Source: an uncultured bacterium (lineage in GTDB: Bacteria; Krumholzibacteriota; Krumholzibacteriia; WVZY01). From it: a stretch of DNA of 64,000 nucleotides. The notes beneath the pieces are model-generated. The model searched no databases. It worked only from the letters and a program-made list of their open reading frames with translations, and was not told the origin of the DNA. Shown in pieces: positions 364 to 21,591 of the stretch. The position numbers and the translations under genes are program-made. How positions within the stretch are numbered: position 1 is the first letter of the stretch; each line of letters starts with the position of its first letter. Where the stretch lies: the NCBI GenBank assembly GCA_964654695.1, contig CAZZKJ010000005.1, positions 3,404 through 67,403 of the forward strand. The letters run 5' to 3'.

Positions 364-2226
364 TCAAGGTTTCTTAATCCAGATTTCGAGTTCTTCTCCG
401 GGATGGATGAAAGATTTACGGCCTTTGCCGTTCCATGCCAGAAGGTCGCTTACCATGACATTGAATTTCTTGCTTATATGATAAATGGTGTCGCCTTTTT
501 TAACTACATAGTTGCGCTTCATGTATCCTCTTTGCGATGACGGCTTGTCTTTGCTGGAGATTGAAGCTCGGGGCGATTTGAAAGATTTTGGGACATAAAT
601 CTTCAGTTTTTGGCCTGGATAAATATAGGATCTGAAAGAAAGATTGTTCCAGCGGCGGATCTTGCTGGCCCTGGTATGGTAGAGTTCGGCTATTGCTCCA
701 AGATTGTCCCTGTCTTTGACAAAGTATTCCACTTTCTTATATCCCGCCGGGGCGGCTCTCTTCAGCGCATATGATTCCAGAGCCTTCTTGCTTAGCTTTC
801 TTCTCTTGTCCGAATAGATGGGTTTTGATGATGCAAGAGCAGTATATTCACCTTTGAGGGGTACAATCAAAGTCTTGCCGGCCCTAATCAGATGGGAATT
901 CTTGATTCCGTTCAGCCGTTTGAGTGTGCCTATGCTTGTACCGAACTTTCTTGCGATGAGGGACAGTGTTTCTCCATTGCGGATTCGGTGACGGCGCCAG
1001 GTAACGCGTTTGGAAGGCGGAATATCGAGAAGTTTTGCGGTGCAGGATGCTCCTTTGCCCTTTGGGACTTTGACATCCAACCGTGCTTTTGGAGGAGTAC
1101 ACCAGCGCAAAATTGCCGGGTTGAGATTGCGTATAAACTTGAGGCTGGCATCGGAAAGCCGGGCGATCAATTTGAGGTCCGTAGCGTCGGTTACGGTTAC
1201 AGCGTCGAATTCATCCGGGGTTGTTCGGGGAATATCGAAACCATATTTTGGAGGATTGCGCAAAATATACAAAGCTGCGAGAAATTTCGGAACATATCTT
1301 TCGGTTTGCCTGGGAAGCTTAAGCCTCCAGAAATCTTCGGTTTTCTGACGGACGACGGCCCCGGCAACCCTGTATTCGCCCGCGTTGTACGATGCCAGAG
1401 CCAGGAGCCATGAGTGCCACACGGCGTAAAGATCTTTTAAATAGTTTCCGGCGGCATAAGTAGAAGCTACAATGTCCCGCCTTTCATCCACCCACCAGTT
1501 TACCCGCAGTCCGTAGATTCTGCCGGTGCCGGCTAGGAACTGCCAGGGCCCCACTGCCTTGGCCTTGGACCTGGCTTTCATATTAAAACCGCTTTCAATT
1601 AGCGGAATGCATATTAAAGAAGGCGGCAGATCGAGTTCAGCCAGAATTTTCTCGACGGTAGGTCTGTGGTTTTCCAACCGGTAGAGGTTTCTAGCGAAAC
1701 GACTTTTGCCCGGACCTGTAAAGTATCTCAGCCAGAAGGCGATGCGCTTATTTTCGATATAATGAAACGCGGTATCTTCAGGAGATGAATAGCCGTCATA
1801 ATCGATATGAACTGCACTGTCCGGCCATTCGAGAACGGATAAAGCAATGCTGTCCTCTTGTGATAGATATGGATGCCTGTACTCATGGTTCAAAGCCAAA
1901 GAATCCAACCGGCCCAGTTCCACAAGGACACTCAATGCTACGGAGTCTTCCGAAGCTGAGGGATTCATTCCTAAATAGTCCTGGAGATCGATTTGCAGCG
2001 AATCGCGGGCAAAGAAAAAACCGTTAATATCCCCAAATTCCAGAAGTGAAACCACCGAGTCTAGGCGTTTCTGAAAATTATCGGCTTTGTAATTAGCCTG
2101 CATCTGGGCGGTTTGCTCGGCCGAAACGCCGTCTTTCCCGGGAGAAACCGGTCCCCCGGCCGGAGCCCACGAGCATTCCGGAAGAGCATATAACGCAAGC
2201 AATAACAGTAAGTAACGTTTAACCAT
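364..2226 (-). CDS. mltD: Membrane-bound lytic murein transglycosylase (MltD-like) with three C-terminal LysM domains
   Basis: Signal peptide MVKRYLLLLLALYALP. SLT catalytic region (ESGFN...AVGPWQF...ASYNAGEYRV). Three LysM repeats (e.g. YVVKKGDTIYHISKKFNVMVSDLLAWNG). The start was moved to the ATG at 2224-2226 (MVKRY) because the 32 upstream codons of the ORF precede the signal peptide. Confidence 0.85.
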   Translation of the reverse strand: MVKRYLLLLLALYALPECSWAPAGGPVSPGKDGVSAEQTAQMQANYKADNFQKRLDSVVSLLEFGDINGFFFARDSLQIDLQDYLGMNPSASEDSVALSVLVELGRLDSLALNHEYRHPYLSQEDSIALSVLEWPDSAVHIDYDGYSSPEDTAFHYIENKRIAFWLRYFTGPGKSRFARNLYRLENHRPTVEKILAELDLPPSLICIPLIESGFNMKARSKAKAVGPWQFLAGTGRIYGLRVNWWVDERRDIVASTYAAGNYLKDLYAVWHSWLLALASYNAGEYRVAGAVVRQKTEDFWRLKLPRQTERYVPKFLAALYILRNPPKYGFDIPRTTPDEFDAVTVTDATDLKLIARLSDASLKFIRNLNPAILRWCTPPKARLDVKVPKGKGASCTAKLLDIPPSKRVTWRRHRIRNGETLSLIARKFGTSIGTLKRLNGIKNSHLIRAGKTLIVPLKGEYTALASSKPIYSDKRRKLSKKALESYALKRAAPAGYKKVEYFVKDRDNLGAIAELYHTRASKIRRWNNLSFRSYIYPGQKLKIYVPKSFKSPRASISSKDKPSSQRGYMKRNYVVKKGDTIYHISKKFNVMVSDLLAWNGKGRKSFIHPGEELEIWIKKP

Positions 2227-2416
2227 TTTGGTAATCCGCTTTCCATCCGTTAAATAATTCAGGCATTTTCGGGCTATTTTCAGCAAATTGCAAGCCAAAT
2301 CGTCTTTGGACTTGAAAAGCATGCCGGATAATTAACAGTAGAAAGATTGAACGTAAATAATGTATAATTAGGGATATAAAAACATACGATTCCCTCATTA
2401 TTTTGAAGGTATAAAA

Positions 2417-8517: not shown

Positions 8518-10056
8518 ATGCAGGAAAAAGGCATAGTAATACTTGATTTTGGATCGCAGTACACGCAATTGATTACCAAATCGATTCGCAGGTTGAATGT
8601 GTTTTCCGAAATACTTCCGTGCACCGCTCCCCGGGAGGAGATTCTCAAGAATAAACCCAACGGCATTATCCTGTCTGGAGGGCCGTCAAGTGTATTTGAC
8701 AGGGACGCACCTATATTGCCTGAATTCTTACTGGGGTTGAATCTACCCATCCTGGGTATCTGTTACGGCATGCAGCTGGCGGCAAGGGCTATGGGAGCGG
8801 AAGTCAAACAGTCCGGCAGCGGGGAGTATGGGTTCACTCTGATAAAAACCATGGAAGATAACCCTCTTTTCAAGAGAACCCCGGAAGAGCAACAGGTATG
8901 GATGAGCCACAGGGATAAAATAGCAGGCAGAGTTCCGGGTATGGAAGTGATTGCTTCTTCTGATAACTGCGACATAGCTGCTCTAGCTTTTCCTGAAAAA
9001 CATATTTACGGTGTGCAGTTTCATCCGGAGGTTCGCCATACTTCCTGTGGCGAAACAATACTGGAAAATTTTATATTCGAAATTTGCATGTGTTCGGCAG
9101 CTTGGAAAGCGGAAAATATGATCGAACAGAAGATAAGCGAAATCAAAACCGCTGCCGGGAACAAACCTGTGATCTGCGGCGTAAGCGGCGGAGTCGACAG
9201 CTCGGTGACTGCTGTTTTAACCAGCAGGGCGGTTGGAAAGAATCTTTTTTGCGTATTCGTCGATAATGGACTGCTTCGCTCAAATGAGAAAGAAAATGTT
9301 GAGAAGCTGCTCAACAAACACCTGGCAGTGAAATTGCATGTTGTCGATGCCCGCAGGAGATTCCTGGAGTGCCTGCAGGGGGTTCTGGATCCGGAAGAGA
9401 AGCGCAAGAGAATAGGCGGTTTGTTTATAGATATTTTTAATGATGTAAGCAAGCAGGCCGGACCTTTTGAATATCTGGCTCAAGGTACCTTATATCCGGA
9501 CCGAATCGAAAGCACATCCACTTTCGGGCCTTCAGATGTAATAAAAACCCATCACAACGTTGGGGGTTTGCCGGATAAGATAAATTTCAAACTTATCGAA
9601 CCTCTGGCATTTCTTTTTAAAGATGAAGTGCGTGAGCTCGGAAGAGCTGCAGGTCTTCCGGAAGAACTGCTCGGACGTCATCCTTTTCCGGGACCCGGAC
9701 TGGCCGTCAGGGTGGTGGGAGAAGTGACGGAATCAAAGCTGGAAATACTGCGCAAAGCCGACAAGATCTTTATAGACGGGCTAAAAGAATGGAAGCTTTA
9801 CGACAAAGTATGGCAGGCGGGGGCTGTTCTTCTTTCCGTCAAGAGCGTTGGCGTGATGGGCGATTGCAGGACCTATAACTATGTTATCGCCCTAAGGGCT
9901 GTTAACAGCACAGATGGGATGACAGCGGATTGGGCCAGACTCGGTGATGATTTCCTGGCGGCTATGTCCAGCAAAATTATAAACTCCATTGAAGGCATAA
10001 ACCGGGTTGTCTATGACATCAGTTCCAAACCGCCCAGCACCATAGAATGGGAATGA
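8518..10056 (+). CDS. guaA: GMP synthase (glutamine-hydrolysing)
   Basis: GATase domain (ILDFGSQYTQLI, ...GICYGMQL) and ATP-PPase SGGVDSSV motif. C-terminal end ...IEWE. Confidence 0.95.
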   Translation: MQEKGIVILDFGSQYTQLITKSIRRLNVFSEILPCTAPREEILKNKPNGIILSGGPSSVFDRDAPILPEFLLGLNLPILGICYGMQLAARAMGAEVKQSGSGEYGFTLIKTMEDNPLFKRTPEEQQVWMSHRDKIAGRVPGMEVIASSDNCDIAALAFPEKHIYGVQFHPEVRHTSCGETILENFIFEICMCSAAWKAENMIEQKISEIKTAAGNKPVICGVSGGVDSSVTAVLTSRAVGKNLFCVFVDNGLLRSNEKENVEKLLNKHLAVKLHVVDARRRFLECLQGVLDPEEKRKRIGGLFIDIFNDVSKQAGPFEYLAQGTLYPDRIESTSTFGPSDVIKTHHNVGGLPDKINFKLIEPLAFLFKDEVRELGRAAGLPEELLGRHPFPGPGLAVRVVGEVTESKLEILRKADKIFIDGLKEWKLYDKVWQAGAVLLSVKSVGVMGDCRTYNYVIALRAVNSTDGMTADWARLGDDFLAAMSSKIINSIEGINRVVYDISSKPPSTIEWE

Positions 10057-10155
10057 CAAATCCCATCGATAATAAAACCATACGTTTTCTGAATTAAAAA
10101 AAAGCAACCTTGATTGCGATCCAGGCGGATTAACCTCAAAAGACCGGCGGATTCG

Positions 10156-12495
10156 ATGTTCAACCGCTTTAAAGGGCTTATTATTTTATTCCTCCTTGTT
10201 TGTTTCAATTCGCCGGCATCATCCAGTTCAAATACGACAATTATAACCGCCTCCAAAGTTAACTGCGCCCTTGTTCTGGAAAGCTTCGGAGAAGTGGAGA
10301 GAGCCGAAGAAGTGATCGCCTCGCTGCCTCGCGACGCCGCCGGGATTGCACGGGTGCACGCCAGGCTTCTTGCAAAAATGGGTCTTTATGAACGCGCGGA
10401 CAGCGCCTATTCCCTGGCATGTGCTCAAATGAATGGCAAATCGCTTACGGAGCGGCAGCTTCAATGTTTTATTCATGCCGTGTATAGCCTGAATGCGGGA
10501 GACGGCAAAAAAGCGCTTCGTTATTTAGAGTTATTGGATTCACACTCGATTCCGACCTTAGAGGACTATATTATATTTGCAAGGATGAAGGCAAAAGCAC
10601 TTCAAGGAGATTACGAAAAGGCGGTCGAACTGGGTATAACCAAAATCAACGATGGGCTCTGCAGAACCTTGACGCCCGAATTCGAAGGAGAAGTTCTGAA
10701 ATGTTTATCGGCCGCTAATAATGATTCGCTTGCGTTGGTGGTAATATCATCATTGAAGAAAATATTAAAGAAGGATAAAAAGATAATTCCGTTCCTGCTG
10801 CAGGAGATAAATTTATCAATCACCGGTAGTAATCATAATAGAGCGCGTAAGGCGGCAATGGAGCTGATACAGGAATACCCGCGTTCGGACGCTGCTACCG
10901 AAGCAATTGAAATCTTATTGTCGAATTATCCATTATCGGATTTAAAAACTGATGAATTGATTCAATACTGCAAAATCCTGGTTGATCACAAAAAAAAGAT
11001 CACAGCGAAGAAATTTATCTCAGAGTTGGGAAAAAGATCTTTAAAAGAGACGGAGAGAGAGCATAAAAATTTATATGAAGGCATACTGTTGTATCATTAT
11101 GGCAGATACGAAAAGGCCTTAAAAATACTGAAATATGAATTCCAAAAACAAGAAATATTCTCCAAGTCGCTCATATGGAAGGCCAGAGCCTACAGAAAAC
11201 TCAAAAGATACCGTCTTGCCGCCGAGACATATGAATATTTCAGCAGGTATTATCCCAAGAATCCAACCGCGCCCGAAGCTCTGCTTGTCGCCGCGCATCT
11301 ATGGGAAAAGAACGGACACCATAGCAGATCCCGTTCGATAAGAACGGCCCTTGCCGACAAATATCCGGATAGTTACTACGGCGTGTCTGCAGCTTTGGAA
11401 AATGCATTTTATTTCATTGAGCGCAGGCAATATAGAAAAGGCGCAGAAATATTGAAAAACGCTTCCGAACTCTCCGGCAGGTCTTTTGAAGAATATTTCT
11501 ATTACATGGCGAGATGCTACGAGTACTCGGGGGAAAAACACCTTAGCTCGAAGGCTGCCGGCCGGCTTAATAAGATAAACCGCTGCTCTTTTTACATCGA
11601 ACCCGAAATTAAGAGCGGATTCAAGGCGCCGGCGCTGAGCAGCAGGGGAAGGGCGATTATGGACGGGGAACACGGTTTGATAAAAATACTGTCCGGGATC
11701 GAGCACGATAGAAATCGTGCTTATGCTTACATCGATAGTCTGGTTAGGATAACCGGACAGAGAGAAAAATCTTGGAAAAATAACAAGCACTTCGAATTGG
11801 GACGGCTTTTTCTGCAATCGGGTCTGATTGTCTGGGCTGAAAACGAACTCGGAGAAGCGATGAAGGATTTTCGAAGCAATCCCGCAGCCCTGAGCGCCCT
11901 GGCACGGATTTATGACGGCGCGGGAATGGTCTGGGAGAGTTTAAAAACATACGAGAGACTCAAGTTTATTCTGGCGAGAAGACATAGGATCTCAGTTGAT
12001 GACCGATTTGACATAGTGCTTTACCCTCTTCCTTTTCCCGGCATGGTATTGGAGAGGTGCATCCGCTATAACATACCTCCTAATCTCGCGTTTGCGCTTA
12101 TCAGGGAAGAAAGCCGGTTCCATGCAAAAGCTGTTTCCAGGGCGGGAGCTGTTGGATTGATGCAGCTTATGCCGGAAACCGGCTTACAACTGGCGGATGA
12201 ACTGGGATACGCAGTGGATGAGAGCATCCTGGTACTTCCGGAATTAAATATTGAATTGGGAATGCGTTACGCCTCGCGACTGTTGATGCTTTGCAAAGGC
12301 AGATACCACATGATGCTGGCTGCCTATAATGCAGGAATGAAAAACGCCAAGCGATGGTTTACGAAAAAGAACATGAACTGGAGTCTGCAATGGCAGGTAG
12401 ACCACATCGATTACAAAGAAACCAGGCAGTACGTTAAACGAATCGTAGAATCAGCGAACAGATATTCATTTCTATACGACTTTTCCGAGGAATAA
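10156..12495 (+). CDS. slt: Soluble lytic murein transglycosylase (Slt70-like): TPR/superhelical N-terminal region plus C-terminal SLT domain
   Basis: Signal peptide MFNRFKGLIILFLLVCF. C-terminal ...FALIREESRFHAKAVSRAGAVGLMQLMPETG...AAYNAGMKN. The ATG at 10156 is preferred over the upstream TTG at 10114. Confidence 0.8.
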   Translation: MFNRFKGLIILFLLVCFNSPASSSSNTTIITASKVNCALVLESFGEVERAEEVIASLPRDAAGIARVHARLLAKMGLYERADSAYSLACAQMNGKSLTERQLQCFIHAVYSLNAGDGKKALRYLELLDSHSIPTLEDYIIFARMKAKALQGDYEKAVELGITKINDGLCRTLTPEFEGEVLKCLSAANNDSLALVVISSLKKILKKDKKIIPFLLQEINLSITGSNHNRARKAAMELIQEYPRSDAATEAIEILLSNYPLSDLKTDELIQYCKILVDHKKKITAKKFISELGKRSLKETEREHKNLYEGILLYHYGRYEKALKILKYEFQKQEIFSKSLIWKARAYRKLKRYRLAAETYEYFSRYYPKNPTAPEALLVAAHLWEKNGHHSRSRSIRTALADKYPDSYYGVSAALENAFYFIERRQYRKGAEILKNASELSGRSFEEYFYYMARCYEYSGEKHLSSKAAGRLNKINRCSFYIEPEIKSGFKAPALSSRGRAIMDGEHGLIKILSGIEHDRNRAYAYIDSLVRITGQREKSWKNNKHFELGRLFLQSGLIVWAENELGEAMKDFRSNPAALSALARIYDGAGMVWESLKTYERLKFILARRHRISVDDRFDIVLYPLPFPGMVLERCIRYNIPPNLAFALIREESRFHAKAVSRAGAVGLMQLMPETGLQLADELGYAVDESILVLPELNIELGMRYASRLLMLCKGRYHMMLAAYNAGMKNAKRWFTKKNMNWSLQWQVDHIDYKETRQYVKRIVESANRYSFLYDFSEE

Positions 12496-12505
12496 TCGAA
12501 TCGAA

Positions 12506-13867
12506 ATGTCAAAAGTTCTATTTGCTCGTCTGCTATTTCTTGCTGCATCCACAAACATTACTCTTATTCTGTTAAATTCGACAGGCGTTTCAGCGGCAGA
12601 GACAACAATAGTCGAACCGCCTTGGAAACATTGTTTTGGTATTAACCGTGTGAGGCAATCTCATCTCAGTTTATATTCCGGCTATAAGAAAAGATTTGCT
12701 TCACCTCAGGGGATAGTCGCTCTGAAGCTCGACGCCAATGACCGGCCGGGACAAAGCGATGACGATGAGCTGACGGTTTACGGAGTGAATTCCGACGCCG
12801 GAGAGATAATTTATAACAAATCTCTGGCCAGCTTAGGTTTCTGGAATGCGGCGGATAAATCGGATAGTGCGCTGTCGAATCCTATAGGAATCGCTGCCGC
12901 CCCTGATGGTTCGGTCATAATAGCGGATACCGGAAACAACCGTCTCGTCTTGTTGAAGAACGAGAATAACAACCTGCATTATCTTTTTGCCTCTCGTCTG
13001 GACGATTCGAACCAGCAGCTGTCAGGGCCTTCAGATGTCGATTTCGAAAACGATACCCTTTATGTGGCCGATACCGGGAACAACAGGATTATTGCCGCGT
13101 TAAACCGGGATTCCTCCCTGCAGACTATCAGGAATGTGCGACCTTCAAAACCATTGTATCATCCTTTTGGAATTGCATGCATTTCAGGAAAAAGATTCAA
13201 CTATTATAATTCCAATTTTATAGTTATCACAGATTCCCTGAATAAAAGGCTTGTGCAGATTTCACTGGACGGCAGGGTTCAAAAAGTAACCAGAATATAT
13301 GATATAAGCGATCGCGGGGGCGGCTTTTATTTTGTCGAAATAGATTATTATTCCAACATTTACGTTACGGATACCGATGGCGGATGCGTATATAAGTTCA
13401 ACAAGGATTTGCAGTTTCTTTCCCGCCTGGCATGCTCGGATTCTGATAAACACCGTCTTGAGGAACCCAGGGGGATAACAATTTATCGCCGTTTTGGCCA
13501 GATTTTTGTCGCAGAGAGATCGGGGGCGAGCTATTTCTGGGTTGGTACCGATGTGCTTTATGCTTCGGGAAAGATAAATTACCTCGATGAGAATCATAGC
13601 GGCCGGGTACTGCAGGTGCGGTTTCTGCTCACCGAGCACTCGTACGTAACCATAAGGCTCAAAGCGGATGATGATTGTGGAAAACGCACTTTTATTGAAA
13701 ATGTATTTATGGCGCCCGGGGTCGTATTCAGGATTTATGAGCTGGCGCTGTTTCCGGAGGCCGAAAAACTCGCAAATTGCAAATATTTCATAGAGATAGA
13801 GGCCGTTCCTACATACGCGTCAAAACGATATCTCACAGTTGTAAAACATGCAATCCTAAAGTTTTAA
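12506..13867 (+). CDS. Secreted NHL-repeat beta-propeller protein
   Basis: Signal peptide, then repeated NHL-like units (IAAAPDGSVIIADTGNNRLVLL; LYVADTGNNRIIAAL; IYVTDTDGGCVYKF). Begins 10 nt after the slt stop. Confidence 0.7.
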   Translation: MSKVLFARLLFLAASTNITLILLNSTGVSAAETTIVEPPWKHCFGINRVRQSHLSLYSGYKKRFASPQGIVALKLDANDRPGQSDDDELTVYGVNSDAGEIIYNKSLASLGFWNAADKSDSALSNPIGIAAAPDGSVIIADTGNNRLVLLKNENNNLHYLFASRLDDSNQQLSGPSDVDFENDTLYVADTGNNRIIAALNRDSSLQTIRNVRPSKPLYHPFGIACISGKRFNYYNSNFIVITDSLNKRLVQISLDGRVQKVTRIYDISDRGGGFYFVEIDYYSNIYVTDTDGGCVYKFNKDLQFLSRLACSDSDKHRLEEPRGITIYRRFGQIFVAERSGASYFWVGTDVLYASGKINYLDENHSGRVLQVRFLLTEHSYVTIRLKADDDCGKRTFIENVFMAPGVVFRIYELALFPEAEKLANCKYFIEIEAVPTYASKRYLTVVKHAILKF

Positions 13868-13879
13868 AGGTGAATAACC

Positions 13880-14500
13880 ATGCAAGAAAGCCGACCAGAA
13901 AAATCTGCTGATCCCAAATCAATAATACTGGAATTAAAGAGGAAATCCATTCATGCAGTAATGGTTGTAATCCCCCTGTGGATCTATTTTATGCCCCCGC
14001 GGACCGCCGATATTGGCCTTATAATTGCTAGTATGGCTACGATAGCATTTGATGTATGGCGTTTGAGCGATAACAAGTTAAAGAGGTTTTTCCTCAGGTT
14101 CTTTAAATCGCTGATTCGCAGGCACGAAGAAGAGCATCTTTTGGGTTCGACTTATTTCATGATTGCAGCGTTGATAAGCGTGCTCATCTTCCAGAAATTA
14201 ATAGCTATTTCCGCCCTTCTTTTCCTGGTAATTGGCGATACGGCAGCAGCCGTTTTTGGAAAGAAGTATGGAAAGCCCCGCTACTGGGGTAAAAGTATAG
14301 AAGGTAGTCTCGCCTGCTTTTTAAGTTGCCTGATCATAGGCTACATTATTTTGAAATCCGAAGAGGGAGCGAATCAACTGGTTTGGGCGGGGGCGTTAGC
14401 GGCTGTTATTGCGGAAGCGGTTCCCGCACCAATGGATGACAACATGAGAGTTCCTATAATAAGCGGAATGATCATGCAAATAGTTGCTCACTTTAGTTAG
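13880..14500 (+). CDS. Small polytopic membrane protein of the CTP-transferase superfamily (CdsA / dolichol-kinase / phytol-kinase-like)
   Basis: Six predicted TM segments. C-terminal signature LVIGDTAAAVFGKKYGKPRYWGKSIEGSLA matches the GD..A...G...G....K..EG..A motif of that superfamily. Confidence 0.55.
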   Translation: MQESRPEKSADPKSIILELKRKSIHAVMVVIPLWIYFMPPRTADIGLIIASMATIAFDVWRLSDNKLKRFFLRFFKSLIRRHEEEHLLGSTYFMIAALISVLIFQKLIAISALLFLVIGDTAAAVFGKKYGKPRYWGKSIEGSLACFLSCLIIGYIILKSEEGANQLVWAGALAAVIAEAVPAPMDDNMRVPIISGMIMQIVAHFS

Positions 14501-14508
14501 GGGTTGCC

Positions 14509-15444
14509 ATGTTTCTCAAGAAGTTATTCAATTTTATCCCCAGGAATGAATTTTCCAAAGCTCTGGATCTGTATAACCGTGGAGACTACAGAAAAGCCCT
14601 GCATAAATTCGAAGATTTAATAGAGAATAATGAATCTCCTGAAAACCTCGATTTACAGACAATTGAGCTCTATGCATGCGAAGCACATGTAGGATTAAGC
14701 AAGTATTATTCTGACGGCGGCGATCTAGAATCAGCCGTTGATGAAATGGAAAAGGCCGTCGCACTCAAACCAAATTTTGCTGATCTTCGCTACAACCTTG
14801 GCAATCTGCATTTCAAGATCGGCAACACGGATAAAGCAGTAGTTAATCTGCGCAAATCTCTGGAAATCAATCCAAAATTTTTCAAAGCCAGAGTAATTTT
14901 ATCAAAATTACTTCTGGCGGGAAATGATATCGAGGGATGCTCAAGAGAACTATCTACAGCTGAAGAGGTTTGTCCTAACTTTTACAGGGAAAAATTGAAC
15001 GAGCTGAACCAGGCTTTGAGAATAAGCGGCAAGGATGCAAACGTAGAAAAATTATATACAGAAATCCTTGAGGAAAAACCAACTTCGGCGCAGCTCAGCA
15101 GGGAACTGGCCGTTGAAGCAATTCACAACGGCAACAATACAGAGGCGATCAGAGAGCTTAAAAAAGCCATTGCTCTTAATCCCGATTATCCGGATCTTCA
15201 TAATTACCTTGGTATAGCCTATGGAAACAACGGCATGCTGGATGATTCCATAGAAGAATTTGAAAGAGCGCTGAAAATAAACCCTTATTATATGAAAGCC
15301 AGACTCAATATGGCTTTGGCCATGTATGAGAAAGGGGAATTCCCCGAGGCAGGCAATCACTTGAGCAAAGTTCTGGAGGTTCAGCCGAAGAACGAGCTTG
15401 CTAACAATCTGCTTGCCGAATTGAATGCAGTCAAGGGCAGGTAA
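14509..15444 (+). CDS. TPR-repeat protein
   Basis: Repeated 34-aa TPR units (e.g. AEAHVGLSKYYSDGGDLESAVDEMEKAVALKPNFADLRYNLGN). Confidence 0.7.
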   Translation: MFLKKLFNFIPRNEFSKALDLYNRGDYRKALHKFEDLIENNESPENLDLQTIELYACEAHVGLSKYYSDGGDLESAVDEMEKAVALKPNFADLRYNLGNLHFKIGNTDKAVVNLRKSLEINPKFFKARVILSKLLLAGNDIEGCSRELSTAEEVCPNFYREKLNELNQALRISGKDANVEKLYTEILEEKPTSAQLSRELAVEAIHNGNNTEAIRELKKAIALNPDYPDLHNYLGIAYGNNGMLDDSIEEFERALKINPYYMKARLNMALAMYEKGEFPEAGNHLSKVLEVQPKNELANNLLAELNAVKGR

Positions 15445-15449
15445 CAAGA

Positions 15450-16181
15450 ATGGCTATAAAAGAAAATTTCGTTGATTACTATGCGGTGCTGCAGGTTTGG
15501 CCGACGGCATCGGAAGAAATAATAAAAAAAGCGTATTTTTCAATGGCAAAGCTCTATCACCCTGACATTTCCAAGGATAAAGATGATGATTCATCCAATG
15601 CCGGCGGAATCGATTTCAAAATGATCAACGAAGCTTACAATACCCTGATAGATGCGGTCAAAAGAAGGCATTATGACGAAAAATTCAAGCTCCTGGGAAG
15701 GACTGGGACGGGACAAAGAGATGCCGACAAGCGGTCCGCCAGGCTGGCCTTCGAGCAAGCCAAAACAGCCATGAAGCACAATCGTTACGATAAAGCCGTG
15801 ATTCTCCTTCAAAGCGCAATCAAGTATGATGAAACCAATCCGGCATTCCACAGTTGGTACGGGTTCGCCCTGGCGGCCATGAACGCCAAGCTGCACGAAG
15901 CCAGAGACGCTTGCAAAAAAGCATTGGAAATAGAATTCTATAATGCCGAATATCACGCCAATCTGGGGTTCGTGTATTACCAGGCCGGCTTGAAAAGCAC
16001 GGCGAATGAGAGTTTTAAAGAAGCTCTGAAATGGGATCCTGAGAATCCAATAGCTCTTAGATACCTTTACGGCAACAAAGGCCGCCCAAAAACAGGTTTG
16101 TTCGGTAGCCTTGTTGGATTTTTCAAAAAACCTCAGCCTCAACCAGTCAGAAAGCGAAAAACAATCAAAAAGAAGCGCTGA
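15450..16181 (+). CDS. J-domain (DnaJ-like) protein with TPR-like repeats and a basic C-terminal tail
   Basis: N-terminal J domain DYYAVLQV...IKKAYFSMAKLYHPD (HPD motif) followed by TPR-like helices. C-terminus KKPQPQPVRKRKTIKKKR. Confidence 0.7.
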   Translation: MAIKENFVDYYAVLQVWPTASEEIIKKAYFSMAKLYHPDISKDKDDDSSNAGGIDFKMINEAYNTLIDAVKRRHYDEKFKLLGRTGTGQRDADKRSARLAFEQAKTAMKHNRYDKAVILLQSAIKYDETNPAFHSWYGFALAAMNAKLHEARDACKKALEIEFYNAEYHANLGFVYYQAGLKSTANESFKEALKWDPENPIALRYLYGNKGRPKTGLFGSLVGFFKKPQPQPVRKRKTIKKKR

Positions 16182-16264: not shown

Positions 16265-18166
16265 ATGAAAAAGCAGATTATTTTCACTCCTCAGACCGAA
16301 ACGTCAAGGGATCTCTCGTATTCAGAGCAGGCGAGTTGCCGACAGAGTCTTCACATCCTGCTGCAGGATAGGGGTATTCAAAAGTACGGTTTCTTGCTCA
16401 GAATATACAGGGATGTAGTAGCTTCCTACCTTTCCTCCAGGGAGATCAAGAATCCAGAATCTTTTCTCGTTGAACTGGCGTCTTTGCTGGATAAAGCATC
16501 GCTTGACGAAAAACTCGATCTCGACGATTTCAGGGCTTTTGATGTATTCATCACAGTAAAGACGGCCGCCGCCGTTTATATTCTTACAAGTGACAAATCC
16601 AAAGTATGTTGCACAGGTGAAACCGGGATATGCACCATAGATTCCATAACCCATGGCAATGTCATTCGCGAAATCCGCGTCCCAGTGGACAATTCCCAGG
16701 TTGAACTTTTTCCAGGCAAGTTGAGCGAAACCGTTTCTCTTTTCTGTTTGCAATCACAAGAAGATGCTCCTGTTGAGCTTATCTTGGGTTTGGGAAAAAA
16801 CGAAATCAGCAAGATCAAAGAACACTTTCCAGGTGAAGGATATTCGAAATCCGCATCCGCCCAACCATCAAGAGAATGGGTGCCGGTTAAATTTTTGAAT
16901 AATAAAGTACTTTTCATATCGTTTTCCGCAGTCGGCGGCACGCTGCTGCCATACTCCATGCCTATTGAACAGGCCGGAGCAACACACAGAACGTTACCGA
17001 TAGTAATTACGGTTGCGGCGATTTTATTTGCTCTGGCTGCCGGAAGATGGATTTTAAAATCAAGCCGCAACCAGAAAGATAATGGCGCACTTACACAAAG
17101 GGCTTCGATTTCCGCAGAACCCGCCACCCTCCCGTCCATGCTTCCGTCGAGATCAATTGAAAGTAACATCCGGAACGATGGAAGTGCTGCGTTGACTATC
17201 GCTTGGCGGAGAAGCTTCACGAAGCCGGTGACGTCTTCTCCTGCAATCGTAAACGATCTTGTGGTGTTCGGGTGCAGAAATGACACCCTCTACGCGCTGG
17301 ATGCAGGAACGGGTTCAACAAAATGGTGTTTTGATTCAAAAGCAGGAATCGGAGCTTCACCGGTTATATCCGGAGATAGAATCGTTGCAGCGAATTATGA
17401 TGGAAAGATTTTTTGCTTGAACGCTGTGAAGGGCGATCGCCTTTGGGGAAAAAAGCTCTCGGGTAGAATCGTAAGCTCGCCGATTGCCGCAGATAACAAA
17501 GTTTTTGTCTGCAGTTATGATCATTATATTTATTGTTTTTCTATGAGTACAGGAGACCTGCTTTGGAAGTATAAAACCCAGAACATCATACGTGCAACCC
17601 CTCTGCTTGCCGGCAGGCTGCTGATATGCCCGTCCAACGACGGAGCCCTGCATGCTGTTTCTATTGGAACCGGAAAAGGCATTTGGAAGTATAAAATAAG
17701 CGGAGGTATTTCCAGCTCGCCGGCAGTTTCCGCCTCGATGATATTTGCGGGAAGCTCCGATGGGCATGTTTACGCGCTGGATGCTTCCAGCGGCCGGGTC
17801 AAATGGAAAACCAAAACCGGAGGAGCAATAAAGTCGGCTCTTGGCGTCTTTGGCAATAAATTGTACGCCGGTTCCAATGATGGACAAGTATATTGCCTGG
17901 ATACGAACGACGGATCGGTGCTGTGGACATTCAAAACGAGAGGTATTATTTTATCTCGACCTTATATCGACGGGGACAAAGTCTTCATAGGCTCTTACGA
18001 CGGCAACTTGTATATGCTGAATAGCGACGATGGAAAAATCGTGTGCAGCTATTCAACGGGAGGTGATATTTTTTCTTCTCCGTTGATTTTTAGAAACAAA
18101 GTTTATTTCGGCAATATGGACGGCCGTTTTTATTGCTTGAACCTGCAGCGGGGGGAGGGATCATAG
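16265..18166 (+). CDS. Membrane-anchored PQQ-like (BamB-type) beta-propeller protein with an uncharacterised ~230-aa N-terminal cytoplasmic domain
   Basis: Single TM segment (LPIVITVAAILFALAAGRWIL). Six to eight PQQ-like repeats (TLYALDAGTGSTKWCF, HVYALDASSGRVKWK, QVYCLDTNDGSVLWTF...). Confidence 0.7.
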   Translation: MKKQIIFTPQTETSRDLSYSEQASCRQSLHILLQDRGIQKYGFLLRIYRDVVASYLSSREIKNPESFLVELASLLDKASLDEKLDLDDFRAFDVFITVKTAAAVYILTSDKSKVCCTGETGICTIDSITHGNVIREIRVPVDNSQVELFPGKLSETVSLFCLQSQEDAPVELILGLGKNEISKIKEHFPGEGYSKSASAQPSREWVPVKFLNNKVLFISFSAVGGTLLPYSMPIEQAGATHRTLPIVITVAAILFALAAGRWILKSSRNQKDNGALTQRASISAEPATLPSMLPSRSIESNIRNDGSAALTIAWRRSFTKPVTSSPAIVNDLVVFGCRNDTLYALDAGTGSTKWCFDSKAGIGASPVISGDRIVAANYDGKIFCLNAVKGDRLWGKKLSGRIVSSPIAADNKVFVCSYDHYIYCFSMSTGDLLWKYKTQNIIRATPLLAGRLLICPSNDGALHAVSIGTGKGIWKYKISGGISSSPAVSASMIFAGSSDGHVYALDASSGRVKWKTKTGGAIKSALGVFGNKLYAGSNDGQVYCLDTNDGSVLWTFKTRGIILSRPYIDGDKVFIGSYDGNLYMLNSDDGKIVCSYSTGGDIFSSPLIFRNKVYFGNMDGRFYCLNLQRGEGS

Positions 18167-18212: not shown

Positions 18213-18419
18213 ATGGCTAAGCATGAAGGCGTGATAACTTACTTTAACGAGAAAAAAGGTTATGGATTTATATCATGCGATGACAAGAAAAACATATACG
18301 TTCATTACTCGGCTATAAAAGGAAAAGGCTACAAAACATTAGCAGAAGGCCAGAAGGTTCTTTTCGAATTGGAATCGGACTCGAGCGGATTTCAGGCGAG
18401 AAACGTAGCTAAAATCTGA
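18213..18419 (+). CDS. cspA: Cold-shock protein (CspA family)
   Basis: 68 aa. The KGYGFI motif is clear. An AAAGGAGG RBS lies 6 nt upstream. Confidence 0.9.
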   Translation: MAKHEGVITYFNEKKGYGFISCDDKKNIYVHYSAIKGKGYKTLAEGQKVLFELESDSSGFQARNVAKI

Positions 18420-18558
18420 TTTTCCCGGTGAGATAATTCCGCAAACCTTTGCCTCAGGCGAAGTTCATCCTCTCTTTCTCTTGCAAAGAAGACATCATTT
18501 TGTTAATTTTAGGCAGTTAAAAAATCATCCCCCGGGTCCACATTTGTAAATAGCAAAT

Positions 18559-21500
18559 ATGAAAAAAACGCTGTTAAACAAGTTTTTCAAACCCAAATCC
18601 CAACGCGATTTCGAACGTCATGCCGGGATCCTCAAGCAGGTCAATGAGTTCGCCGAATCATTCTATTCCCTTGCGATCGAGGAATATCCTGCAAAAACAG
18701 AACAATTTAGACAAAGACTCGCAGACGGTGAAAAGCTCGATAATTTGCTTCCCGAGGCCTTCGGTTTGGTAAAAGCTGTTTGCCGCGCTCTATGCGGACA
18801 GACCTGGGATGTCTGCGGCCAACCCATTGCATGGGATATGGTCCCATATGACGTGCAGATCGTAGGAGGGATTATGCTGCACGAAGGAGCTATTACTGAG
18901 ATGGCCACGGGTGAAGGAAAAACATTGGTAGCCACCATGCCGCTTTACCTCAATGCGCTGTCAGGACAAGGCGCACATCTGATTACTGTCAATGATTACC
19001 TTTCGAAGAGAGATTCGCAGTGGATGGGAAAAATCTTCGAGCTCCTTGGACTTTCCGTGGGATGCATTCAAAATGATCTTCCCAATGATCAGAGAGTTGC
19101 GGAATACAAAACAGATATTACATACGGCACGAACAATGAATTCGGTTTCGATTATCTTCGGGACAATATGAAAACGAGAATCGAGGACAAGGTCCAGCGA
19201 GGCCATAATTATGCCATAGTCGATGAAGTTGACAGTGTTCTAATAGATGAAGCCAGAACGCCGCTCATCATTTCGGGCCCGGTCACCGCCAGCAAATCTT
19301 CTGAATTGTTCCTGCATTTGAAACCGAAAGTCGAACGCGTGCACACTCTGCAGAACCGACTGATCAATTCGCTGCTTTCATCGGTTGAAAAAACCATAGA
19401 GGATTCCGATGATGATGACGCAAAAGCTCTGCTCAAGATTCAAAGAGGTGCTCCAAAAAATAACCGGTTTATGAAGATTAAGAAAGAACCCGGGATCGAG
19501 AAGCTTATTTTGCGCACCGAAGCCGATTTAATGAGAGATAAAACCCTTCATCTGCTGGATGAGGAACTCTACTACGCGGTTGATGAAAAAGCCAATACCA
19601 TAAATTTGACTGACAAAGGCCGCGAGGCTCTTTCTCCGGAAGACAGAGACCAGTTCGTTCTGCCGGATCTGAGCGAAGAAATCAAAAAGATAGATGACGA
19701 TCCGTCAATATCTGCCAAAGATAAGATCAAACAGAAAGACCGTGCTTACAGGAAGTATGGTGAAAAATCTGATGCGATCCACAACTTCACCCAGCTCCTT
19801 AAGGCTTATGCATTGTTCGAACAAGATGTCGAGTATGTTGTTCAGGATGGAAGAGTGATAATAGTCGATGAATTCACGGGCAGACTAATGCCCGGCAGGC
19901 GCTTCTCCGACGGCCTGCATCAGGCTCTTGAAGCCAAGGAAGGCGTTAAAATTGAAGGAGAAACCCAGACCCTTGCCACAATTACACTGCAGAATTATTT
20001 CCGGATGTACAAAAAGCTTTCAGGCATGACCGGTACGGCTGAAACGGAGGCCGAAGAATTTCATAAAATTTATAAGCTTCCGGTCAACGTCGTGCCGACC
20101 AATGAAACGGTCCGCAGGATTGATTTTGAAGATCAGATCTATAGAACGAAGCGAGAAAAATTTAACGCCATTATAGATGAAATAGCACGTCTCAACGCCC
20201 AGCAGCTTCCCGTACTCGTGGGAACAATCACAGTTGAAGTGTCGGAGACTTTGAGCAGACTTCTTAAACGCAGAGGGATCATGCACAATGTTCTAAATGC
20301 AAAATATCATCAAAAGGAAGCTGAAATAGTCTCTCAAGCTGGTAAGGCTTCGGCGGTTACTATCGCTACCAACATGGCCGGAAGGGGCACAGATATCAAA
20401 CTGGGCGAGGGCGTAGTAAAGTGTGAAACATGCGGGATCATGCAGGGAAAAAACGAATGGCCGAGCAAAAATGGCACCGTTAATCCGGTTGAATGCGAGA
20501 AGGATGTTCCCTGTGGTCTCCATATCATCGGTACCGAACGGCACGAATCCAGGAGAATAGACAGACAGCTTCGCGGCCGGGCGGGCAGGCAGGGCGATCC
20601 CGGTGCTTCAAAATTTTACTTGAGCCTGGAAGATGACCTGATGCGTTTGTTCGGATCCGACAGGATATCAGGAGTTATGGACCGCATGGGGATAGAAGAT
20701 GGGGAGGTAATCACACATAAACTGGTTACCAGGGCAATTGGCCGTGCTCAAAAAAGGGTAGAAAACTACAATTTCGATATACGCAAACGCCTTTTAGAGT
20801 ATGACGATGTAATGAATAAACAACGTGAAGTAATCTATGGAAGACGCGATGAAATAATGCAATCGGAGGACCTCGCGGATATAATAAAAGTGATGATAGA
20901 GGATTACCTCGAATCGACTATAGAAGAATATTTAAATCCTTCTGTTCTTCAGGAAAACTGGCCCCTGGAACAACTTTTTGGTCAACTTGAAAACAGATTC
21001 CTGCACAATTTCCCGATGCCTGCGGTCGATGTGGAAAGCCTGTCCCTTGAAAGCGTTTTCGATTATTGCAAGGAAACTGCTGTTGAAGCCCTCGAAGCGC
21101 GCGAACGGTTCCTGGAAGAAGAACTCGAAGGAATGGAGATGGTTCGTGAATTCGAAAAATATGTGCTTTTGCAGATAATAGACGAAAAATGGATGGATCA
21201 CCTTCATGAACTCGATTATTTGAAGGAGGGTATTCACTTCCGTGCATATGCCCAAAAAGATCCGCTTGTTGAATACAAGAAGGAGGCCTTTGAGCTTTTC
21301 GCCGAACTCAATGCTTCAATTGATCAGGATGCGCTGGCAGCCCTGTTTCATGCCCGGATAGCGGCGGAAAAACGGAGCGGAGCAGATATGCGCAATGCAA
21401 AGGCTATTCACAACGAAACAGCGCAATATGGAATGGACCAGACGGCTATGGGATCCACGAAAGCTACAAGCGCCGCCCTCAAAACCAGAGCCGCGTCTGC

Positions 21501-21591
21501 TCCCGTATTGCGAAAATCCGATAAAATCGGCCGAAACGACCCCTGCCCCTGTGGGAGCGGCAAAAAATATAAAAAATGCTGCGGCCGATAA
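18559..21591 (+). CDS. secA: Preprotein translocase ATPase SecA
   Basis: DEAD-like motor motifs, MTGTAETE, IATNMAGRGTDIKLG, and the C-terminal zinc-binding CPCGSGKKYKKCCG. Confidence 0.95.
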   Translation: MKKTLLNKFFKPKSQRDFERHAGILKQVNEFAESFYSLAIEEYPAKTEQFRQRLADGEKLDNLLPEAFGLVKAVCRALCGQTWDVCGQPIAWDMVPYDVQIVGGIMLHEGAITEMATGEGKTLVATMPLYLNALSGQGAHLITVNDYLSKRDSQWMGKIFELLGLSVGCIQNDLPNDQRVAEYKTDITYGTNNEFGFDYLRDNMKTRIEDKVQRGHNYAIVDEVDSVLIDEARTPLIISGPVTASKSSELFLHLKPKVERVHTLQNRLINSLLSSVEKTIEDSDDDDAKALLKIQRGAPKNNRFMKIKKEPGIEKLILRTEADLMRDKTLHLLDEELYYAVDEKANTINLTDKGREALSPEDRDQFVLPDLSEEIKKIDDDPSISAKDKIKQKDRAYRKYGEKSDAIHNFTQLLKAYALFEQDVEYVVQDGRVIIVDEFTGRLMPGRRFSDGLHQALEAKEGVKIEGETQTLATITLQNYFRMYKKLSGMTGTAETEAEEFHKIYKLPVNVVPTNETVRRIDFEDQIYRTKREKFNAIIDEIARLNAQQLPVLVGTITVEVSETLSRLLKRRGIMHNVLNAKYHQKEAEIVSQAGKASAVTIATNMAGRGTDIKLGEGVVKCETCGIMQGKNEWPSKNGTVNPVECEKDVPCGLHIIGTERHESRRIDRQLRGRAGRQGDPGASKFYLSLEDDLMRLFGSDRISGVMDRMGIEDGEVITHKLVTRAIGRAQKRVENYNFDIRKRLLEYDDVMNKQREVIYGRRDEIMQSEDLADIIKVMIEDYLESTIEEYLNPSVLQENWPLEQLFGQLENRFLHNFPMPAVDVESLSLESVFDYCKETAVEALEARERFLEEELEGMEMVREFEKYVLLQIIDEKWMDHLHELDYLKEGIHFRAYAQKDPLVEYKKEAFELFAELNASIDQDALAALFHARIAAEKRSGADMRNAKAIHNETAQYGMDQTAMGSTKATSAALKTRAASAPVLRKSDKIGRNDPCPCGSGKKYKKCCGR

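Follow-up and report, generated by a model that had tools for sequence, protein, structure and literature searches.

We analyzed a window of 64,000 nucleotides from an uncultured bacterium of the Krumholzibacteriia (GenBank assembly GCA_964654695.1, contig CAZZKJ010000005.1), which is the whole stretch of DNA to which the positions below refer, and within it a string of five genes located between guaA and secA. All five genes are on the + strand and encode, in order, a Slt70-like lytic transglycosylase (SLT; 10114–12495, 793 aa from a TTG start), a secreted NHL-repeat β-propeller (NHL; 12506–13867, 453 aa), a polytopic membrane protein that is a putative CTP-dependent (poly)prenol kinase (KIN; 13880–14500, 206 aa), a tetratricopeptide repeat protein (TPR; 14509–15444, 311 aa), and a class-C J-domain protein with TPRs (J-TPR; 15450–16181, 243 aa). 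An earlier reading made from the letters alone (the sequence-only reading) had described the string as a tightly packed unit, possibly a new envelope-remodeling or lipid-carrier module. The five open reading frames (ORFs) were found at the coordinates and on the strand given there, with recomputed gaps of 10, 12, 8, and 5 nt, and the gene identities, including that of KIN as a membrane protein with a CdsA-type motif, were upheld by Pfam and NCBIfam matches and by motifs. The unit itself did not survive comparison with related genomes: NHL is missing from most relatives, TPR and J-TPR are missing from loci of the Eisenbacteria type, and the conserved insertion contains a sixth gene, encoding a bitopic protein with a PQQ/BamB-like propeller (PQQ; 16265–18166, +, 633 aa), which lies beyond the range of the earlier reading and was omitted from it. 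The string is best explained as a series of housekeeping and envelope genes on the leading strand that was built up in layers, and not as one five-component machine.

The gene order was compared in about 35 related loci, drawn from 24 species-representative genomes, several long contigs, and approximately 12 metagenome contigs. In these loci the order was comEC-purN-purC-purH-guaA-SLT-(NHL)-KIN-TPR-JTPR-PQQ-(csp)-secA-smg-topA. The conserved backbone around the string is bounded upstream by guaA (8518–10056, +), which showed 60–71% identity by tblastn in all related loci and whose products in the relatives match the Pfam families GATase and GMP_synt_C, and downstream by secA (18559–21591, +). 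The closest relatives (L001, L004, L007, L023, L024, L032, and L035) share the complete five-gene order including NHL. The synteny anticipated by the sequence-only reading is real, since the order was kept in every relative examined, but the same is true of guaA and secA, and the clade-wide conservation from comEC to topA means that the five genes are not singled out by synteny. In the reference genomes measured, the KIN-to-TPR gap was 3–9 nt and the TPR-to-J-TPR gap was 1–39 nt (24 genomes each), the J-TPR-to-PQQ gap was 48–177 nt, and the SLT-to-KIN gap was 67–239 nt where NHL was absent. Wherever a Krumholzibacteriia-type locus extended far enough, PQQ came next after J-TPR. In some metagenome-assembled genomes (MAGs) with long contigs, guaA, secA, and topA are fragmented, as is KIN in L028 (L003 6010–7549 and 14461–17586; L028 10001–10580), and these fragments are probably assembly frameshift errors rather than pseudogenes.

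Beyond the clade, a metagenome scan with a 10-sequence KIN alignment gave 80 loci, which were classified by tblastn and GC3-weighted ORF calls (GC3, GC content at third codon positions). Approximately 30 of them are high-GC loci of an Eisenbacteria type, the KIN proteins of which are 36–44% identical to that of the window; the label comes from a search with the KIN protein of one of these loci (L058), whose homologs are from Candidatus Eisenbacteria wherever the source is named. The order in these loci is purH-guaA-[~960-aa M6 peptidase]-SLT-KIN-secA-smg-topA. According to the ORF calls, the SLT-to-KIN gap was mostly 9–16 nt and at most about 60 nt, and the KIN-to-secA gap was greater than 100 nt. 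Neither tblastn nor the ORF calls detected NHL, TPR, J-TPR, or PQQ in any of these ~30 loci. The M6 (immune inhibitor A) peptidase protein of ~940–985 aa between guaA and SLT was observed in L058 (2735–5617), where its gene is flanked by gaps of 7–10 nt, and in about 10 other Eisenbacteria loci. A scan of genome contigs carrying KIN returned nearly all the same class, plus one Longimicrobium contig, in which KIN is followed ~270 nt on by a gene for an 893-aa TPR and SLT protein among quite different neighbors.

These comparisons show three layers. SLT followed by KIN is an old neighbor pair between guaA and secA that is shared with the Eisenbacteria; NHL occupies the junction between SLT and KIN in some lineages only; and TPR, J-TPR, and PQQ were seen only in loci of the Krumholzibacteriia type, where they separate KIN from secA.

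NHL matches PF01436 at 55 bits, and its N-terminus is hydrophobic and signal-like (residues 4–23). A conserved PPWKH sequence lies in its N-terminal part, and an Ig-like domain at its C-terminus. Apart from the window, it was found only in the seven closest relatives named above. In one Krumholzibacteriia-type contig (L041) its place between SLT and KIN is taken by a 611-aa PMT_2 (GT-C) glycosyltransferase with about 10 transmembrane segments (397–2232 of that contig). Other lineages likewise encode full-length NHL homologs (31–33% identity over ~420 aa), placed two genes before a KIN homolog, and their C-termini match FlgD_ig. These loci, about five in number, have unrelated flanks, belong to lineages bearing a type IX secretion system, and show the order NHL-[312-aa protein]-KIN-[TPR and SurA-like peptidyl-prolyl isomerase] (L077 5775–13205; L099 5639–11114; L102; L064). 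The 312-aa protein is most likely an outer-membrane β-barrel, judging from its signal peptide and C-terminal Phe. In L077, an M28 peptidase with a Por_Secre_tail domain is inserted into this cluster. NHL is a facultative insert, yet one that recurs near KIN in other lineages.

The tight packing stressed by the sequence-only reading is not distinctive in this genome. On the + strand lie 44 of the 45 long ORFs of the window, an extreme bias, and the cumulative GC skew climbs nearly steadily across the window, which fits a single leading-strand segment of a replichore. The median gap was 15.5 nt, gaps of 12 nt or less made up 21 of 44, and the window contained three runs of at least four such gaps; when the order of the gaps was shuffled, at least one such run arose in 77% of the shuffles. 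These results indicate that the spacing of the five-gene string is no tighter than expected by chance. No terminator-like sites or unusually stable hairpins were detected in the spacers flanking the string, and the region and its surroundings contained no Rfam families or meaningful repeats. The five genes could plausibly form a single transcription unit, because they share a strand and are separated by gaps of 5–12 nt that leave no room for terminators; no terminator-like site lies between them, as expected of an operon.

The C-terminal part of KIN contains the motif G119-D120-xx-A123-xxx-G127-xxx-G131-x6-K138-S-x-E141-G142-xx-A145, which reads D120-TA-A123-AVF-G127-KKY-G131-KPRYW-GKS-I-E141-G142 in the window protein. 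The CTP-site motif of dolichol kinase (DOLK) is D-xx-A-xxx-G-xxx-G-x8-KKT-x-EG (PMC13586052), and KIN carries this type of motif with a spacer of 5 residues instead of 8. All of the 40 diverse representatives of the family that were compared share residues R21, H25, E83, D120, G127, K138, G142, E179, D187, and N188, which argues for KIN being an active enzyme. The family is large: an exhaustive profile search gave 5,918 clusters at 50% identity (E ≤ 1e-3), mostly of 185–215 aa. KIN homologs are named "SEC59/DGK1/VTE5 family protein" at NCBI and "dolichol kinase" at JGI, with "phosphatidate cytidylyltransferase" as the older name, and come from MAGs labeled Candidatus Krumholzibacteria, Krumholzibacteriia, or Latescibacterota; an identical protein is encoded in JGI metagenome 3300002231 (contig KVRMV2_100037134). 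KIN has the features of a CdsA/CarS-like membrane fold. An identity as CdsA (CDP-diacylglycerol synthase) was rejected, as no curated CdsA model matched and the C-terminus reads P-x-P-x-DDN-x-R-x-P. From its motif, predicted topology, and homologs, KIN is assigned to the SEC59/DGK1/VTE5 type, as a small protein that has a CdsA-like fold and is putatively a CTP-dependent prenol kinase.

The family to which KIN is assigned covers Dgk1, VTE5, FOLK, and dolichol kinase, and the members characterized at the time of a 2022 review were from plants and cyanobacteria only (PMC9782597). In the literature including that review, we found no characterized member from a non-photosynthetic bacterium (PMC9782597). 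The gene contexts of KIN relatives bear on the substrate of these proteins. In three loci (L106 6546–9559; L097 19–2834; L110), KIN lies between genes for a geranylgeranyl reductase and a GT2 glycosyltransferase with two C-terminal transmembrane segments, which is the layout of GtrB and DPM1, and the arrangement looks like a cassette for the reduction, phosphorylation, and glycosylation of a polyprenol. The reductase of L106 carries a fused 2x[4Fe-4S] domain. In five further loci (L095 5925–10624; L098; L107; L109; L096), the order is RsmB-PASTA-KIN-BatA with overlapping stops and starts; these lineages have a very low GC content (28–38%), and the PASTA protein has three repeats and one transmembrane segment. 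Within the 64-kb window, no homologs of the outer-membrane barrel, SurA-like isomerase, PASTA protein, BatA, M6 peptidase, geranylgeranyl reductase, or GT2 enzyme were found. The reductase, the polyprenyl-phosphate-dependent glycosyltransferases of two kinds, and the proteins that bind or cut the cell wall, all encoded beside KIN relatives, suggest that KIN acts on a polyprenol, with the polyprenyl phosphate as its product and the envelope as the place of use. A prenol kinase from Plasmodium has reportedly been described since the 2022 review.

SLT matches PF01464 at 85 bits (cut-off 21.3) over residues 651–752 and contains the motifs E665-S666, GLMQ at 681, and AYNAG at 737. It consists of a signal peptide, a long α-helical N-terminal region that is weakly TPR-like, and an SLT domain in the last ~150 residues. 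Translation probably does not begin at the TTG at 10114 but further downstream, at the ATG at 10156 (M15), which, as judged from the sequence, gives a normal signal peptide (MFNRFKGLIILFLLVCFNSPASS). The nearest solved chains, aligned to residues 597–788, are Pseudomonas Slt, Neisseria LtgA, and E. coli Slt70. Equivalence to full-length E. coli Slt70 (NCBIfam PRK11619) was rejected, as the score was 64 versus 536 bits and only the C-terminal ~150 residues aligned, and the flagellar-assembly lytic transglycosylase BB0259 (NF047373) was rejected at 151 bits against a cut-off of 234, with residues 592–789 alone aligned. The lone long gene on the minus strand of the window (364–2322, −) encodes a second lytic transglycosylase, which is MltD-like and has an SLT domain and three LysM repeats.

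The TPR protein matches many TPR families of Pfam, and J-TPR matches PF00226 at 69 bits (cut-off 27.8), with the HPD motif at residues 37–39 followed by about three TPRs. J-TPR is classified as a class-C J-protein because its J-domain alone aligns with the DnaJ and CbpA models; canonical DnaJ and CbpA were rejected, with scores of 60 versus 377 bits for TIGR02349 and 48 versus 403 bits for PRK10266. The best 120 of 336 J-TPR homologs belong to the same orthogroup and are 56–74% identical, apart from one fragment at 99% identity, and the few among these 120 with a named source are from Krumholzibacteriia or Latescibacterota. No signal peptide or transmembrane segment was found in TPR or J-TPR. 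The N-terminus of TPR is near-invariant in 24 orthologs (MFLK[KR]LFxFIP[KR]xEFSxAL; window 14509–14570), and its 11-residue N-terminal stretch is amphipathic, with a helical hydrophobic moment of 0.81. The C-terminus of J-TPR carries a hydrophobic patch of the GLFGxFxK type (GGLFGLF[RK]K or, in a longer form, GLFGxLxxFFKK) and a basic tail, which are conserved across orthologs (window 16100–16181). Both termini may serve as peripheral membrane anchors or as partner-binding peptides. An anti-phage defense function of the region was rejected, as PADLOC gave only chance-level matches of the TPR type (E > 1e-4).

PQQ consists of a cytoplasmic domain of ~240 aa, one transmembrane segment (approximately residues 239–265), and a periplasmic PQQ/BamB-like propeller that matches PF13360 and PF13570. 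The N-terminal 252 aa (window 16265–17020) had no Pfam match even at E = 1, and the cytoplasmic domain is kept in all orthologs. BamB itself was rejected as an identity, since the score against TIGR03300 was 191 versus 285 bits and PQQ has the additional cytoplasmic domain and transmembrane segment. J-TPR and PQQ are two genes in all orthologs. In the JGI contig encoding the identical KIN (L111 4260–4400), one extra A (CCAAGT versus CCAGT, near window position 16144) merges the J-TPR tail, the stop-free 83-nt spacer, and the PQQ gene into one ORF of 905 aa, and an assembly error is the likelier cause because Ns lie 20 nt upstream. Between PQQ and secA there is a small cold-shock-domain gene (18214–18420), which is below the ORF-length thresholds used; its counterpart is annotated CSD in L001 and L004, and none was called in L003.

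The reading that we favor, which we regard as about evenly poised between right and wrong, is that KIN makes a polyprenyl-phosphate carrier with CTP and is co-expressed with SLT, and that TPR and J-TPR are a later, clade-specific addition. KIN would phosphorylate a membrane polyprenol, such as an undecaprenol-like carrier alcohol, at the cytoplasmic face, and the product would be a regenerated polyprenyl-phosphate carrier, which peptidoglycan and the other glycans of the envelope require. Its co-expression with a cleaver of glycan strands would tie the supply of the carrier to wall turnover, in an arrangement that would be older than the split between Krumholzibacteriota and Eisenbacteria. TPR and J-TPR would most likely act as membrane-peripheral adaptors through which DnaK reaches a client in the membrane, perhaps KIN or PQQ; this is the weakest step of the proposal. 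Several observations weigh against this reading. KIN scored 20.7 bits against CTP_transf_1 (PF01148), so that the family match suggested by the sequence-only reading is seen but falls below the Pfam gathering score of 24, and only 2 of 17 KIN orthologs match this model at all. NCBIfam gave no match to KIN at E ≤ 0.01, PDB sequences searched with a profile built from the KIN alignment gave none either, and the best Foldseek hit in the PDB was CdsA with a weak, non-significant E value of 0.33. In eight loci guaA is followed directly by KIN without SLT, and the SLT-KIN pair occurs outside the conserved backbone in one locus only, that of Longimicrobium, at ~270 nt. In regard to TPR and J-TPR, the amphipathic-anchor idea comes from inspection of the sequences and a hydrophobic-moment calculation only.

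The conserved order also includes the functionally unrelated guaA, secA, and topA, so the adjacency of SLT and KIN could be inherited order without functional coupling. Such an explanation, in which this part of the chromosome has kept its order since Krumholzibacteriota and Eisenbacteria last shared an ancestor, the short gaps are a style of the genome, and no two of the five products cooperate, appears somewhat unlikely but is the most serious of the alternatives. It agrees with the extension of the conserved block over comEC, purN/C/H, guaA, secA, smg, and topA in all relatives and with the ordinary gap statistics and the single strand of 44 of the 45 genes. It accounts less well for the selective tightness of the junctions, with KIN-to-TPR held at 3–9 nt in 24 genomes and Eisenbacteria-type SLT-to-KIN mostly at 9–16 nt, whereas the KIN-to-secA and J-TPR-to-PQQ junctions are loose, and for the adjacency of KIN and SLT in the different context of Longimicrobium and the recurrence of full-length NHL homologs near KIN among otherwise different neighbors.

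A different substrate for KIN is a further alternative, which we judge improbable. KIN would then be a CTP-dependent diacylglycerol kinase like Dgk1, which recycles diacylglycerol to phosphatidate, or would phosphorylate phytol or a short-chain prenol for the synthesis of quinones or other isoprenoids, and its position beside SLT would be incidental. These activities fit the fold of KIN equally well, which also counts against a polyprenol kinase: the family holds Dgk1, VTE5, and FOLK besides dolichol kinase, as the homolog names and the review show (PMC9782597), sequence and fold cannot tell their substrates apart, and older homolog annotations read phosphatidate cytidylyltransferase. The neighbors of KIN relatives speak for a polyprenol instead, namely the geranylgeranyl reductase, the GT2 and GT-C glycosyltransferases, which are of a type that uses polyprenyl phosphates, and the extracytoplasmic wall and envelope proteins SLT, PASTA, and the SurA-like isomerase; in addition, P-x-P-x-DDN-x-R-x-P replaces the CdsA-type C-terminal signature, and neither a CdsA nor any other NCBIfam model matched. 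The least probable explanation, and to our mind a very improbable one, is the original proposal that the five genes form one dedicated envelope-remodeling or lipid-carrier module working as a unit. The common strand, the gaps of 5–12 nt, and the unchanged order in the seven closest relatives favor it. Against it, SLT abuts KIN in the majority of related genomes, from which NHL is absent, the ~30 Eisenbacteria-type loci keep SLT-KIN without TPR and J-TPR, the PMT_2 glycosyltransferase fills the NHL slot of L041, and the PQQ gene, which co-varies with TPR and J-TPR, lies outside the proposed set. The link to a lipid carrier is supported for KIN and its envelope neighbors, and it does not extend to a five-component module.

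A polyprenol kinase role for KIN would also allow a broader and more speculative proposal, which we think unlikely as a whole. The small (~190–210 aa) bacterial SEC59/VTE5-like proteins may be the kinases, so far unrecognized, that phosphorylate undecaprenol or polyprenol with CTP in these Gram-negative candidate phyla, wired to proteins that cut or bind the wall (Slt, PASTA, and NHL/SurA-like) and, in Krumholzibacteriia, also controlled or assembled by membrane-tethered TPR and J-TPR together with DnaK. Free polyprenol would then be salvaged into the carrier pool, with the supply following the turnover of the envelope. If the kinase reading is true, bacteria outside the Firmicutes would gain a CTP-based route for re-phosphorylating the free polyprenol carrier through a family of eukaryote and plant type, which bears on how cells maintain the lipid carrier that limits cell-wall synthesis. 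For now, the value of the analysis is mainly negative: the five genes should not be entered in catalogues as a new envelope module. The units worth following are the Slt-kinase pair and, separately, the KIN-TPR-J-TPR trio of Krumholzibacteriia.

Each component belongs to a known kind, and as far as we found, the pairing of Slt with the kinase and the trio of kinase, TPR, and J-TPR are undescribed in the literature; we regard both as modest leads. KIN resembles SEC59/DOLK, VTE5, FOLK, and yeast Dgk1 in its CTP-site motif, polytopic nature, and CdsA/CarS-like fold. It differs from DOLK in size, with ~200 aa and about six helices, whereas DOLK is reported with 15 transmembrane segments, and in the 5 residues from the last Gly to G-K-S, compared with 8 before K-K-T in DOLK. 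The DgkA-type undecaprenol kinases of Gram-positive bacteria phosphorylate free undecaprenol and thereby restore the lipid carrier. Under the proposed mechanism KIN would do the same job, and these enzymes are functional analogues only: they have an unrelated fold, belong to an unrelated family with no homology to KIN found, and depend on ATP rather than CTP.

SLT shares with the Slt70 enzymes of family 1A (E. coli Slt70, 1QSA; P. aeruginosa Slt, 5OHU; Neisseria LtgA, 5O1J) the lysozyme-like SLT domain with Glu-Ser, GLMQ, and AYNxG, as well as the long α-helical N-terminal region and the signal peptide. It is ~170 aa longer than Slt70, the sequence similarity is limited to the last ~200 residues, and its N-terminal region matches TPR-type profiles only, and weakly. 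NHL is an extracytoplasmic propeller like the NHL sensor of PknD, and its repeats match 1RWI and designed proteins derived from 1RWI, whereas the kinase domain attached in PknD is lacking. J-TPR combines a J-domain containing HPD with TPR repeats, as do DNAJC3, DNAJC7, and bacterial DnaJ-TPR proteins. The J-domain is C-terminal in DNAJC3 and DNAJC7, whereas the window protein is short, has its J-domain at the N-terminus, and carries a hydrophobic motif and a basic tail that are undescribed for these two proteins. DnaJ-TPR is among the twelve commonest architecture classes of J-proteins (PMC10410713). Finally, the PQQ_2 repeats of PQQ match BamB models, and PQQ resembles BamB in having an extracytoplasmic propeller.

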